Of a stretch of DNA of 32,000 bases, positions 18,492-25,938 are shown piece by piece (within the stretch, counting starts at the first letter, position 1; each line of letters begins with the position of its first letter). The position numbers and the translations under genes were made by a program. Origin of the DNA: an archaeon. Lineage in GTDB: Archaea > Asgardarchaeota > Thorarchaeia > Thorarchaeales > Thorarchaeaceae. The stretch spans positions 32,633-64,632 of the forward strand of contig JAJRZD010000014.1 of NCBI GenBank assembly GCA_024275415.1. Reading direction: 5' to 3'. The notes below the pieces were generated by a model. The model did not search any database and was not told the origin of the DNA. It saw only the letters and a program-made list of their open reading frames with translations.

Positions 18492-19181
18492 ATGGGCCGC
18501 CAGAAACGACTTGCACTTCTTCTGCATCCGTTCCGACGAGAACTCTATCAGGTCCTATGTGAGAATCCTGGAACATACCTGTTGGAGCTAGTTGATATTC
18601 TTGAGAGCCCCCTAGGGACGTTGACATGGCACCTCAGGATCCTTGAACGTGAGGTACTGGTGAAATCTCTTAAATTCGCAGGTAAGCGGATTTTCTATCC
18701 CAAGATGCTCCGCTCAGAAGAAGCCGAGATGGCCTACGTGACCATGAGGAGCGAAACAGCACAGAAGATTTTTGCATTCATCGTGAATAATTCTGGATGC
18801 TATCAAGAGCAGATGGCTGAGAACCTTGGTGTGCATCATGATACGGTCAGGTGGCACATCTCAAGAATGGAAGAGGTAGGTCTTGTTCGTGTCGAACGTG
18901 TTGGTCGAAAGAAGAAACATTATCTTGCAGAGCTCGGGCAGCACCTTCTTCAAGGCTCACTTAATACAATCTCTGAGGCATATATCATGTTCATAATGGA
19001 AAAACTGGAGGAGGGCTGTCTTAATCCAGTGATACGTGAAAGAACTCCCGAGCAGATTCTTATCCGGATAGATTGTCCAGATAAAGGAAAGGACTGCTAT
19101 ATCAGAGTGAACCTCAGAGAGTGGCAATTTGACTTTCTGGATGAGGACGATACGTTGGAAATTGATGATAAAGACGACTAA
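18492..19181 (+). CDS. Winged-helix transcriptional regulator with two HTH units (COG3398-like)
   Basis: True start likely MGRQKR at 18492 (GGAGG upstream); HPFRRELYQVLCENPG...TLTWHLRILE and a second unit NSGCYQEQMAENLGVHHDTVRWHISRME. Confidence 0.85.
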   Translation: MGRQKRLALLLHPFRRELYQVLCENPGTYLLELVDILESPLGTLTWHLRILEREVLVKSLKFAGKRIFYPKMLRSEEAEMAYVTMRSETAQKIFAFIVNNSGCYQEQMAENLGVHHDTVRWHISRMEEVGLVRVERVGRKKKHYLAELGQHLLQGSLNTISEAYIMFIMEKLEEGCLNPVIRERTPEQILIRIDCPDKGKDCYIRVNLREWQFDFLDEDDTLEIDDKDD

Positions 19182-19903
19182 ATTCCAGCTTGGATTATCT
19201 CATTAATCCGTTTGCAGACGCTTTTGGAGTCTTCGTCTTTCACTATCACAACAAGCAACCGTTTCTCGTCAAGCTTTTGAATTATCATATCTATGTCTTC
19301 AGAACCAATGATGATACTGTCCGTTAGTTCTGAATATGTAAGCCCATTGGCAAATATTGATCCAATCAACGCTGCAATTTCGATGTCATTCTTCAACCCT
19401 ATAGAACTGATGGGCATTCCTTCGATGGTGAGCACCATTCCTTGATCCACTGTTGGGATTGCCTCGACCACTCTGCCAAGAATTGTCCCTGACCCGAAGT
19501 CCTCAGCTGACCGCATAAGGATCTCGATTCGGGTCCCAATCGATTGGAGTTCCGTTATGATGGAGTATATCTCATCATCTTGCGAATCCGAGAAGACACA
19601 AACCAATTGGTATTGGTGCTGAAGCACTATGAGGACTGTTTCACTTCCCGCGTAATGAATCAGATGAGATGGCTTAGGGCGTGAGATATTGCTCATTGTA
19701 GTGATGCTAGACCATACAAGCGCTGCAGAAACTGTGGACAGCACGGTTGGCTCTATCGTTTCCTCTCGTAAGACAGATGCGACCACTACCCCTTCTCTAG
19801 TGCTCAGAACGACACCTATCAATGCAGGATGTAGGTTCAAGGCGTTTTCCAAGAGATCAGCCACTTCTGCCAAGATGCTATCGCTCATCATCGTAACCTG
19901 CAT
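19178..19903 (-). CDS. Protein with two tandem roadblock/LC7-like domains
   Basis: First domain: GVVLSTREGVVVAS...LSTVSAAL; second: GMVLTIEGMPISS...IAALIGSI; both have the alpha-beta-beta-alpha-beta-beta-beta-alpha pattern. Confidence 0.7.
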   Translation of the reverse strand: MQVTMMSDSILAEVADLLENALNLHPALIGVVLSTREGVVVASVLREETIEPTVLSTVSAALVWSSITTMSNISRPKPSHLIHYAGSETVLIVLQHQYQLVCVFSDSQDDEIYSIITELQSIGTRIEILMRSAEDFGSGTILGRVVEAIPTVDQGMVLTIEGMPISSIGLKNDIEIAALIGSIFANGLTYSELTDSIIIGSEDIDMIIQKLDEKRLLVVIVKDEDSKSVCKRINEIIQAGI

Positions 19904-22448: not shown

Positions 22449-22613
22449 ACATCAATACCTCCGAGAACTAATGCCACTATCAGTCAATAGTCTTTTCACC
22501 ATGAATTGCCGATACAATATGAGATGCTTGCTGACAGTGAAGCAACGTAAGTTTATTAATGCGCATCACAACACACAATAACAGCAAGTGCGGAATTAGT
22601 GAGAGTATGAATT

Positions 22614-22997
22614 ATGTTTGATCCTGGGTTCGAAGAGCTACAGGGGAATATCCGAGAGATTATGGAAGAAGCTCTCGCGTTATCAACTGGTGTTCGCGCT
22701 TGGTTGTTATTATCGAAGGAAGGACTTCCTATCGCTTCTGCGGTTCCCCAAGGGCTGGAGGAAGCGGAGATTGCAGCCATGTCCGCTTCAATTCTGGGTG
22801 TTGCTGACCTGGCCGCTGAACGGTTGGAGCAAGGAACACTAGAGGAAATCCTGATCACTAATGAACAGGGTCTTATCATCATGAAAGGGGCCGGCGAGAA
22901 GGCAATTCTCGTCTTAGCAGCTCGAAAAGACATGAAAACAGGGTTGCTCGTCTATGCCGCAAAGACTGCTGTCGAGAAAATTGTCCCATTGCTTTGA
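22614..22997 (+). CDS. Roadblock/LC7 (MglB-like) domain protein
   Basis: LLSKEGLPIASA.P......IAAMSASILGVA......L..G.LEEILI....G.II...AGEKAIL. Confidence 0.9.
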   Translation: MFDPGFEELQGNIREIMEEALALSTGVRAWLLLSKEGLPIASAVPQGLEEAEIAAMSASILGVADLAAERLEQGTLEEILITNEQGLIIMKGAGEKAILVLAARKDMKTGLLVYAAKTAVEKIVPLL

Positions 22998-22999
22998 TA

Positions 23000-25000
23000 T
23001 TAGAAGTATCCAGTTATCCAGTATATGCTTCTTCGCACCAATAACCAATCATCTTCTGCCCCATAATAATTATTCAAGCCAAAATTATCCAGAAAGGAAT
23101 TCGTTCCTGTGACAATCATCCTTGCCGAAGAGCGCCCTTCTGATGCAGCTAGAACCGGTTTTAATGCTGTATGAGATGCCCCATTCTTATCTATCCAGCT
23201 GAACACCTCATATGCAAGGACTGTTGCATTGCCGCTAACATTCAGCGACGCTCCATAATAATCGAACGATTGGACACCTGATGTTATCTCGTGTTCACGG
23301 ACATTAACAACTTGTACGGCATTTGGAAGTCCTTCGTGCATAACGACAGAGGTTGGAACCCTATCGAAGTTCAAACTGAAGTTAAAAGCAGAAAACAGAC
23401 GATTAGCATTGGAAACATCGATGCTCCGGTTATCTCCGCCAGTGATAAGAAGATTGCCGCCTTTCTCCCAATACGTTCGGTATACCTCAATCTCTTCTTG
23501 TGAATATGGGATGGAGCCCGACTGGACTAACTTTCCTTCGCGTTCTACGAATTCCCACCTACTCGGATTGAGTACGATTATTGCATCAAACTGCCTAAAC
23601 CTATTCAAAGTGATTTCAGACCTGTCGCGTAGTTCCTCAACTGCAAACCCAATCTCTGCGAGTTTGGAGTAAAAGCTTCTAAACTGACCATAGACTGAAT
23701 CAGTCCATGACGATGAATGTGTAAAATCAAAGCCCACTTTCTTCACATATGGTGTCGCATCAAAGGCGATAGAAGTATCAATAGCTCGATACCTATCCGA
23801 AATCAGGAATATCCTTCCCCTAAGACTTGTCCATGGAATCATTGAGTTCACCCTGATTTTGGCGTCGAATTGCCCACTTTGATTGACTTCGATGTGCGTA
23901 GGGGCATCAATCCAAGGGCTTGCAGTCCCAGTGGTTCTTACGACGAATGATGCGTTGGTACTTGAAAAAACATTGATTCGAATTGTATATGTGGTATTCA
24001 AAAACCACCTTTCAAATTCAAAGATGCCTTGGTTTGGAGAAATCCATGCTATGAGAGGCAATCCATCAATTTTGTCCGCACTTTTAATGAATCCTTTTGC
24101 CAGATCGACATTGACCACACCAGCCCCTACCGCCCATGGTTCACTTCCCAAGAATCTTGCACTTGATAGCAGAACCGCCTTTATCATCCCAGGGGTCCAG
24201 CGCCATCCATTGTCCTGACAGAATCGGATCAATTCTACAACAGCTGATGTTACGATTGGAGTTGATGCACTGGTTCCTACAAACATGATTGAGTTCTCAT
24301 CGTAGTATCCAGTTGCAGAGATGTCGGGTTTCAGTGACCTATCAAATGAAGGTCCGTGCCCGGAATAGGAATATGCTTTCCCATCACCGTCAATTGCTCC
24401 AACTGCAATAACCTCTGGATATACAGCAGGAGACTGTACTGAACTTCCCGCGAGTCCCTCTTTCCCATTGTTCCCTGCTGCTGCAACAATAACAACCCCT
24501 TGCTGAAATGCCCACCTGACAACTTCTTTCATCCCATCGTTGTTTCGAGGTGAGTTACCGATGGACAGGTTGATCACATCACTGTCCTGCTCTTCCACCG
24601 CCCACCGGATTGCAGCTATTATTGCCTGAGTGGTAGCTTTATCACGCGAGTCCACGACCTTCGCGTTGATGATTCCTGCATTAGGCGACTCGTGGATAAT
24701 GATTTGGGCTACATTGGTTCCATGTAATGAACCAAATGGCTCCGAGTCCGTGGTGGAGTTGTCAGTGGTCGCATAACCATAGGTTTCATTGATGAAACTT
24801 GCCTCTGCTATGATATAAGATGAAAGCCGTTCATCAGGAGTGATTCCAGAATCAATTACCGCCACCCTGACTGAGATATCCGGAGGACCAAACACCTTGG
24901 GCAAGATAAGGAATCCGAAAGTGAATGCTACGAAGATGATTGCGATGACCAAGAGGGCGGTTCCTCTTTTCGGGTCGTAGTCATCTATCTCATCATCCAT
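23000..25000 (-). CDS. S8 subtilisin-like serine protease with an N-terminal TM anchor and a C-terminal GldG/IFT52/DUF4350-like domain
   Basis: Triad D50 (VAVIDSG), H93 (HGTNVA), S244 (GTSASTP); oxyanion N177 (AAAGN); C-terminal DFTH...Y..L...GF.V...GGNLLITG...N.L...F. Confidence 0.9.
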   Translation of the reverse strand: MDDEIDDYDPKRGTALLVIAIIFVAFTFGFLILPKVFGPPDISVRVAVIDSGITPDERLSSYIIAEASFINETYGYATTDNSTTDSEPFGSLHGTNVAQIIIHESPNAGIINAKVVDSRDKATTQAIIAAIRWAVEEQDSDVINLSIGNSPRNNDGMKEVVRWAFQQGVVIVAAAGNNGKEGLAGSSVQSPAVYPEVIAVGAIDGDGKAYSYSGHGPSFDRSLKPDISATGYYDENSIMFVGTSASTPIVTSAVVELIRFCQDNGWRWTPGMIKAVLLSSARFLGSEPWAVGAGVVNVDLAKGFIKSADKIDGLPLIAWISPNQGIFEFERWFLNTTYTIRINVFSSTNASFVVRTTGTASPWIDAPTHIEVNQSGQFDAKIRVNSMIPWTSLRGRIFLISDRYRAIDTSIAFDATPYVKKVGFDFTHSSSWTDSVYGQFRSFYSKLAEIGFAVEELRDRSEITLNRFRQFDAIIVLNPSRWEFVEREGKLVQSGSIPYSQEEIEVYRTYWEKGGNLLITGGDNRSIDVSNANRLFSAFNFSLNFDRVPTSVVMHEGLPNAVQVVNVREHEITSGVQSFDYYGASLNVSGNATVLAYEVFSWIDKNGASHTALKPVLAASEGRSSARMIVTGTNSFLDNFGLNNYYGAEDDWLLVRRSIYWITGYF

Positions 25001-25134
25001 CTCACAGCAATCCTTGTCTTTGTCTGCATGGACTATGGTGTTGTAAATAAAGAATAATGCGAAACAAGCAACTCCCTCACATGAATGTAAATCCTTATCT
25101 TCTCACCGGGCTCAAAACAGGTGGTGGACACAAC

Positions 25135-25938
25135 ATGGTGATGGCAGACCCTGACACCTTTGAGATGCAAGAGTACGAGGGTATCGGAATCTTTGTCCCA
25201 GGTCAGAACTATGAACGAGAACTTGATGGTAGGGGAATGTTCAAAATCCTGCTTCTGACATTGGCTTCTTTTGGCACTACCCTTGGGCTCGCTTTTTTGC
25301 TGTTGATTCCTTTAATGGTCGCCAATCTGATATACTTCGACATGTACGGGGTTGTTTCTTTTGGCCCTTGGGCATACGTCCTGTTGACAACCACTGAATT
25401 TGGTTTCATCATCCCTCCCATCTGGTATGTCCGCAAGAGAGGTTTCTCTCTAAGATCCGTTGGTATTTTGATGAATCAACCTCTCAAGGAGATTGTGCTC
25501 GGCCTCGTCTTTGGTGTGGCCATGATATCTGTCAACATAGCTATAACTTGGGTCATTGCCGAGTACTCGGGGATTGGACATGACAGCTCAGAATCCCCGT
25601 TTATCGCAAGCGATTGGGTCGAGGTCATTGGCTGGATCGTGGTGATGTTCGTAGCGGTAGGATTCAGCGAAGAATTGCTATTCCGAGGGTTCCTGCAAAA
25701 ACGTATGGAGATTTATTTTAGGGCCAAGTCCGGACGCTACAAGCTCCTAGCTCTGGTCATCACATCTGCACTTTTCGCAGCAATGCACTTCGAATTGATT
25801 GGGCTACTAACCCGTTTCATACTCGGGCTGTTCTTAGGCTATCTCTGCCAGAAAAGGAAGTATTCTATCTTGGGGCCTTCAATCGCACACGGGTTCAACA
25901 ATTCCATGGTTATCATACTCGTCTTTCTAGGCTTCTAA
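25135..25938 (+). CDS. CPBP family intramembrane glutamic endopeptidase (CAAX/Abi, Rce1-like)
   Basis: EELLFRG, FAAMH and HGFNN motifs; multiple TM helices; start at 25135 or upstream at 25057/25081. Confidence 0.9.
   Translation: MVMADPDTFEMQEYEGIGIFVPGQNYERELDGRGMFKILLLTLASFGTTLGLAFLLLIPLMVANLIYFDMYGVVSFGPWAYVLLTTTEFGFIIPPIWYVRKRGFSLRSVGILMNQPLKEIVLGLVFGVAMISVNIAITWVIAEYSGIGHDSSESPFIASDWVEVIGWIVVMFVAVGFSEELLFRGFLQKRMEIYFRAKSGRYKLLALVITSALFAAMHFELIGLLTRFILGLFLGYLCQKRKYSILGPSIAHGFNNSMVIILVFLGF

Follow-up and report, generated by a model that had tools for sequence, protein, structure and literature searches.

A membrane-anchored Asgard archaeal subtilase with a site-1 protease-like ectodomain

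Site-1 protease (S1P, also known as SKI-1 or MBTPS1) is the gatekeeper of membrane-to-nucleus signalling by SREBP, ATF6 and the CREB3 family, and cleaves after R-x-(hydrophobic)-(L/K/T) motifs. Its ectodomain consists of A/B prodomains, an S8 catalytic domain, a non-canonical P-like beta-sandwich (residues 479-616) and a GIFT domain (617-998) (PMC11231238). Among the eukaryotic proprotein convertases only S1P has a GIFT domain, which packs on the loops of the oxyanion Asn and helps to gate the active site (PMC11231238). We analysed a 32,000-nucleotide stretch of a Thorarchaeaceae genome (the window; contig JAJRZD010000014.1 of assembly GCA_024275415.1), in which positions 23000..25000 of the minus strand encode P0001, a membrane-anchored S8 protease of 666 aa that also carries P-like and GIFT domains. 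Its relatives are publicly annotated as 'S8 family peptidase' or 'hypothetical protein', and a full-text literature search found no paper tying Asgard or other archaea to S1P, MBTPS1 or GIFT domains.

Taken jointly, the results are best explained by an active, N-terminally anchored subtilase whose P-like and GIFT domains pack as they do in S1P, and whose ectodomain is homologous to that of S1P. We consider this explanation probable.

Domains and fold of the window protease

A single open reading frame (ORF) spans the gene, at the same coordinates as in an earlier note on this DNA. Its stop codon lies at 23000-23002, and hundreds of full-length relatives, 42-61% identical, support the gene call; where their hosts are named, these are Thorarchaeota. 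The earlier note had read, from the letters and their translations, an S8 domain, a beta-rich linker of ~100 aa and a GldG/IFT52-like domain behind an N-terminal anchor, and had quoted segments that resemble S1P. The quoted segments are all present in P0001 (TPGMIKAVLLSSARFL...GAGVVNV at residues 269-297, and KVGFDFTH...NANRLFSAFNF at 421-541), and the layout was confirmed by Pfam for the S8 domain, by an AlphaFold2 (AF2) model and by fold matches of the GIFT domain. The proposed N-terminal anchor, the whole-chain resemblance to human S1P and the S1P/IFT52 fold of the C-terminal domain were likewise borne out, as detailed below.

The AF2 model was built from the family alignment without templates, and had a predicted local distance difference test score (pLDDT) of 89.9 and a predicted template-modelling score (pTM) of 0.87. 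It shows an S8 domain (residues 44-305), an all-beta domain (~318-416) and an alpha/beta domain (420-666). When the PDB was searched with Foldseek, human S1P came first and was matched across all three domains (9csd_A, E 1.1e-38; 8uw8_A, E 2.7e-36; TMq 0.70-0.71, ~760 columns). Next came Vpr (E 4e-23, TMq 0.40), and the other subtilases had E of at least 4e-23 and TMq of at most 0.43. These score lower because only their S8 domain, with or without a beta domain, is matched. VIA-align placed model residues 42-666 on residues 210-874 of human S1P, with Z 41.9, a root-mean-square deviation (rmsd) of 3.2 A over 559 residues, and 21% identity. The three domains superpose on S1P as one rigid body (3.2-3.5 A over ~560 residues). 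A shape search of the ESM-Atlas ranked an arthropod S1P cluster first (TM-score 0.75, 563 residues aligned), followed by plant S1P at 0.63 and all others at 0.54 or below. In a language-model search, the nearest named clusters were eukaryotic S1P (0.93, 190/256 features).

Residues 306-666 were also modelled separately (pLDDT 92.0). Foldseek again put S1P first among PDB entries (2e-15), then IFT52 (9e-12), STM3548 and OST48; S1P leads here because it is the only entry that covers both the P-like and the GIFT domain. In VIA the same model matched S1P with Z 19.9 over 308 residues, model positions 9-361 lying on S1P 478-874, P-like domain included. S1P was also the best two-domain match in the ESM-Atlas shape search (TM-score 0.74, 313/361 residues).

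The Peptidase S8 domain (residues 44-305; 24086..24871, minus strand) was delimited by Pfam, by invariant residues and by structural match to subtilisin BPN'. Pfam Peptidase_S8 (PF00082) covers residues 44-283 with E 2.8e-40, and BPN' aligns to residues 42-304 with Z 34, rmsd 1.5 A and 33% identity (VIA-align). The catalytic residues D50 (codon 24851-24853), H93 (24722-24724) and S244 (24269-24271) and the oxyanion residue N177 (24470-24472), all on the minus strand, are invariant in a 42/42 alignment of family sequences, and the surrounding DSG, HGT, AAGN and GTS motifs are kept across these 42 sequences at 42-61% identity. The Asp-His-Ser order and oxyanion Asn, on a subtilisin alpha/beta fold, place P0001 in family S8. 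In the S1 pocket, the floor residue equivalent to BPN' G166 is Gln189 in P0001 (codon 24434-24436; HMMER alignment to subtilisin E). The family has Glu (29) or Asp (10) at this position in 39/42 members. Engineered G166D/E subtilisins offer an analogy: an acidic residue at this position hints that most of the family would prefer basic residues at P1.

The beta-sandwich P-like domain (residues ~310-417; 23750..24073, minus strand) was defined by AF2 strands at 318-416 and by alignment to S1P 478-616. It is followed by a GIFT domain (GldG/IFT52/OST48-type, GATase1-like; residues 418-666; 23003..23749, minus strand), recognised by VIA, by Foldseek, by profile search and by sub-threshold Pfam matches. 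The latter lie at residues ~494-644 (DUF4350, 16.7 bits against a cut-off of 30.4; IFT52_GIFT, 12.8 against 27.2). A profile of the C-terminal domain, from 33 sequences, matched IFT52 and STM3548 (2gk3) in the PDB at E ~1e-3; up to E 10 it found only IFT52, 2gk3 and 3soz, and not S1P. Exhaustive VIA searches matched the fold to mouse IFT52 (5fms; Z 23.7, rmsd 2.7 A, 210 residues, 21% identity) and to OST48 (Z 20.5). On the model, then, the C-terminal domain is a genuine, compact GIFT domain, and the link specific to S1P resides in the combination and packing of domains rather than in the GIFT domain alone. We rejected a catalytic GATase activity for this domain: P0001 lacks a G-x-C-x-G elbow motif and has Ser at position 480, a Cys in nearly all of the family.

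Ahead of the S8 domain lies a predicted signal-anchor transmembrane (TM) helix at residues 14-34 (24899..24961, minus strand), based on a hydrophobicity scan of homologues, a model helix at 12-27 and invariant alignment columns. The chain begins with a short run of acidic and basic residues, presumably cytoplasmic, that leads into the hydrophobic helix; R12-G13, just ahead of the helix, is invariant across the 42-sequence alignment. S8 strand 1 begins at residue 44, after a linker of only ~9 residues; running directly from helix to strand, the chain leaves no space for a prodomain. The basic residues ahead of the helix and the number of N-x-S/T sequons in the ectodomain suggest an N-in/C-out orientation. 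There are 10 such sequons versus 5.9 +/- 2.1 in shuffled sequences, an excess that fits an outward-facing glycoprotein without proving one. In sequence and AF2 model, P0001 has neither a signal peptide nor the self-cleaved autoinhibitory A/B prodomains of S1P. It also has no C-terminal TM helix with short basic cytoplasmic tail (type I topology); the chain ends at the last GIFT helix, 651-663.

We propose that the N-terminal signal-anchor displays a catalytically competent subtilase on the outer face of the membrane. Packed around the S8 domain as in S1P, the P-like and GIFT domains, the latter non-catalytic, would buttress it, and by analogy with what is described for S1P the GIFT domain may stabilise the oxyanion loops and limit access to the cleft. 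Since there is no prodomain and the linker is ~9 residues long, the enzyme would act constitutively and close to the membrane, and is probably made in active form. Its role would most likely be the processing or shedding of surface or membrane proteins, not bulk nutrition. We infer orientation, activity, GIFT scaffolding and juxtamembrane substrates from the features above; a role for P0001 in regulated proteolysis is conjecture.

Asgard relatives and gene neighbourhood

The Asgard origin claimed for the gene was confirmed. Its closest named homologues are from Thorarchaeota, and in a prokaryotic scan with one genome per species (185,579 genomes) the best 80 of 103 loci, which were kept, were all from Thor-, Prometh- or Hermodarchaeota, or from archaeal metagenome-assembled genomes (MAGs) without a named lineage. 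The best 150 matches from an exhaustive search of 1.8 billion representatives were only Asgard or mis-binned MAG proteins. A profile of the P-like and GIFT domains was found in 82/121 sampled Asgard genomes and 39/44 genera, including 17/17 genomes of the family to which the window belongs.

Beyond the Thor orthologues, this search reached proteins of ~800-1300 aa that align over P0001 residues 43-650. Named ones are from Njordarchaeia, Thorarchaeota, Heimdallarchaeota/Kariarchaeaceae and 'Asgard group', with some mis-binned labels. These long forms begin with a signal peptide and a Tk-SP-like prodomain; behind the S8/P-like/GIFT core come additional immunoglobulin (Ig)-like domains, then a TM helix at the C-terminus with a short basic tail after it. 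As predicted from their sequences, the long-form Asgard proteases have the complete topology of S1P.

The source genome (92.9% complete) holds three paralogues: the window gene, P0295 and P0294. The long form P0294 (981 aa; L003:1210-4155 on contig C1, plus strand) has signal peptide, prodomain, S8, P-like, GIFT and Filamin-like Ig domains, C-terminal TM helix and basic tail. Its GIFT domain passes Pfam cut-offs, with 38.0 for ABC_transp_aux (cut-off 34.7) and 33.1 for DUF4350 (30.4). P0295 (657 aa; L001:1360-3333 on contig C8, plus strand) is a second N-anchored short form, and lies beside genes for a P-type ATPase and a major facilitator superfamily (MFS) transporter. Its orthologue P0123, in another Thorarchaeota genome, is flanked by the same neighbours. 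In seven further relatives (P0131, P0132, P0134, P0137, P0138, P0144 and P0146) S8/P-like/GIFT follows a polytopic domain with 7-14 predicted TM helices; no Pfam family matched these N-terminal domains.

In a tree rooted with GIFT-less subtilases, N-anchored and polytopic forms group together (support 90 by the Shimodaira-Hasegawa-like approximate likelihood-ratio test, SH-aLRT), nested among C-anchored long forms. Because of this nesting, the tree suggests that the N-anchored topology of the window gene is derived. On this view, P0001 would represent a derived, N-anchored paralogue inside an Asgard-wide family of S8/P-like/GIFT proteases.

Some labels pointed outside Asgard archaea, one homologue being labelled Zixibacteria and some cluster members Korarchaeota or Latescibacterota. 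We rejected the candidate bacterial homologue, since the Zixibacteria-labelled contig (GCA_035528535.1, L014:5001-9323) carries ESCRT-II and Vps4 genes beside the protease gene; it is almost certainly a mis-binned Asgard contig.

GIFT sequences were also seen apart from proteases. Many Asgard genomes have ORFs of ~400-450 aa whose matches to the GIFT profile are confined to its C-terminal half (for example G044:C105:2061-2543 and G061:C1:55851-56336), and one Atlas cluster comprises 310-aa 'IFT52 GIFT domain' proteins from Promethearchaeota. Judged by sequence, these ORFs and this cluster suggest that Asgard archaea also have GIFT proteins that stand alone.

In the window, the subtilase gene is divergent from a gene for an Rce1-like (CPBP) intramembrane protease (25057..25938, plus strand; Pfam Rce1-like, 3.2e-18), their starts at most ~56-130 bp apart. 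On its other side it converges with a Roadblock/LC7 (MglB-like) gene (22614-22997, plus strand), which ends 2 bp from the subtilase stop codon. A 125-aa ORF (22556-22933, minus strand) overlaps the Roadblock/LC7 gene, has no Pfam match and is probably spurious. The Rce1-like/subtilase/Roadblock arrangement recurs in three Thor loci (L009-L011) at 43-59% subtilase identity. We propose no functional link between the Rce1-like protease and the subtilase: a whole block of unrelated genes, ~12 kb, is syntenic at the three Thor loci, and the pairing is absent at the paralogue locus, where the P-type ATPase and MFS transporter genes are found instead. Elsewhere in the window, a 241-aa ORF (19178-19903, minus strand) drew no match in Pfam, and the ORFs syntenic with it in L009-L011 gave only a faint one, to Robl_LC7.

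Weighing kinship with S1P

A number of results weigh against close kinship of P0001 with S1P, most of them drawn from sequence comparison. S1P was not among the best 60 PDB sequence matches of either P0001 or its family profile, both lists being led by subtilisin E and BPN'. A profile built from 30 long-form proteins of Asgard archaea matched Tk-SP at 5e-94 (prodomain included), Vpr at 2e-79 and BPN' at ~1e-67; S1P was matched at 4.6e-60, in its S8 part only, and ranked below Tk-SP, Vpr, the intracellular subtilisins and BPN'. In its sequence, the S8 domain resembles subtilisin BPN' and archaeal Tk-SP more than it does S1P. P0001 matched neither of the Pfam models MBTPS1_3rd (PF23094) and MBTPS1_4th (PF23090). 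PF23094, the P-like domain of S1P, had no match in 121 Asgard genomes, nor in the controls. PF23090 scored above its curated cut-off in 9/121 Asgard genomes (0/14 control genomes) and below threshold in 9/33 members of the protein family of P0001; in the 17 genomes of the organism family of P0001 it was never above the cut-off (0/17), the nine positives all being from other Asgard lineages. Two hallmarks of S1P, the prodomains and the C-terminal anchor, are missing from P0001. The tree came from a quick maximum-likelihood search of 80 core regions with no eukaryotes included, and placed 3/12 outgroup rows inside the ingroup. Finally, the isolated GIFT domain was nearer to IFT52 and OST48 than to S1P in VIA, and the Atlas contained bacterial beta-sandwich plus GIFT-like proteins, including an M28 peptidase cluster, at TM-scores of 0.59-0.65. 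Because bacterial proteins carry such similar pairs, the beta-sandwich plus GIFT module could have joined peptidases more than once.

The earlier note had taken the gene for an Asgard relative of the S1P lineage. That proposal is supported in part: strongly as regards layout and packing, and not by the sequence proxies for the S8 domain itself, which do not favour a special kinship. We class P0001 among the S8 subtilases, as one whose ectodomain is of the S1P type, and keep it out of the S1P family, because it has neither the prodomains nor the C-terminal anchor nor matches to the S1P-specific Pfam models.

The strongest rival is convergence, in which an ordinary archaeal surface or nutritional subtilase independently gained a beta-sandwich and a GIFT domain, for example for binding glycans or the S-layer. 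The catalytic domain, compact and of classical subtilisin type (33% identity to BPN', 1.5 A), suits this explanation, as do its higher scores to BPN' and Tk-SP than to S1P, the proximity of the GIFT domain to IFT52, the similar domain pairs on other prokaryotic proteins such as the M28 peptidases, and the want of any match to the S1P P-like model in the 121 Asgard genomes. However, independent fusions would not be expected to yield the same inter-domain packing, which here holds to 3.2-3.5 A over ~560 residues. S1P is moreover clearly the best two-domain match, long forms of the family reproduce its complete topology, and PF23090 does exceed its curated cut-off in nine Asgard genomes. We regard convergence as rather unlikely, and infer that the three-domain ectodomain is homologous to that of S1P.

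It is very unlikely that the gene was transferred horizontally from eukaryotes, or that its contig was mis-assigned, either of which would remove any bearing on the origin of S1P. Binning errors do occur, as the Zixibacteria, Korarchaeota and Latescibacterota labels show, but the Zixibacteria-labelled contig is itself Asgard by its ESCRT-II and Vps4 genes; the module is spread over the sampled Asgard genomes and genera (82/121 and 39/44) with deep divergence and in several architectures, the neighbours and synteny of the window gene are typical of Thorarchaeota, and the S8 domains and prodomains resemble those of archaeal Tk-SP, not those of eukaryotic S1P. Just as improbable is an inactive protein that uses the subtilase fold for scaffolding or binding: most subtilases need a prodomain for folding and P0001 has none, yet active prodomain-less subtilases exist, namely the intracellular subtilisins, and the triad, oxyanion Asn and surrounding motifs are conserved in all 42 aligned sequences.

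The build and packing that the ectodomain of P0001 shares with S1P suggest that the three-domain body plan of S1P predates eukaryotes. Whether eukaryotic S1P descended vertically from the Asgard long forms, with the window gene a Thorarchaeota-specific, re-anchored offshoot, is a more tentative matter; we hold such descent to be possible, short of likely. We know of no SPRING, SREBP or ATF6-type partners in archaea. A phylum-wide Asgard family with the S1P ectodomain, and with S1P topology in its long forms, makes the origin of S1P testable. If descent is true, the archaeal ancestor of eukaryotes already had a membrane-tethered 'site-1' type protease, and a secretory-pathway protease, S1P, would join the candidates as a new eukaryotic signature protein. 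The Asgard pool of GIFT domains might then have given rise to IFT52 and OST48 as well. The prodomain-less window form could serve as a minimal model for support of an S8 site by P-like and GIFT domains.

Comparison with known systems

Tk-SP (PDB 3AFG) and subtilisins BPN' and E have the catalytic domains closest to that of P0001, both by sequence and in local structure, and Tk-SP is also the best PDB sequence match of the long-form profile. They differ from P0001 in having no GIFT domain and in being secreted rather than membrane-anchored, and the C-terminal beta-jelly-roll of Tk-SP is a different accessory domain from those of P0001.

IFT52 (5FMS/5FMR) and OST48/Wbp1 (6S7O, 6C26) provide the best single-domain folds for P0001 residues 420-666 (Z 23.7 and 20.5, respectively). 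Neither is a protease; their GIFT domains are scaffolds in intraflagellar-transport or oligosaccharyltransferase complexes.

The long forms of the Asgard family, such as P0148 from Njordarchaeia (1051 aa) and P0294 (981 aa), share a homologous core with P0001 residues 42-650. They carry the signal peptide, prodomain, Ig-like domains, C-terminal TM helix and basic tail, none of which P0001 has, being anchored at its N-terminus instead.

S1P (PDB 8UW8, 8UWC, 9CSD; PMC11231238) differs from P0001 in its signal peptide and A/B prodomains, in its larger GIFT domain (~380 aa, versus a compact ~250 aa in P0001) and in its C-terminal anchor with basic tail, where that of P0001 is N-terminal (type II). 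The two have in common the Asp/His/Ser triad and oxyanion Asn, and a single-pass anchor that holds the protease outside the cytoplasm, as P0001 is predicted to do. They share, above all, the S8, P-like, GIFT order of domains and the same packing of these domains against one another.

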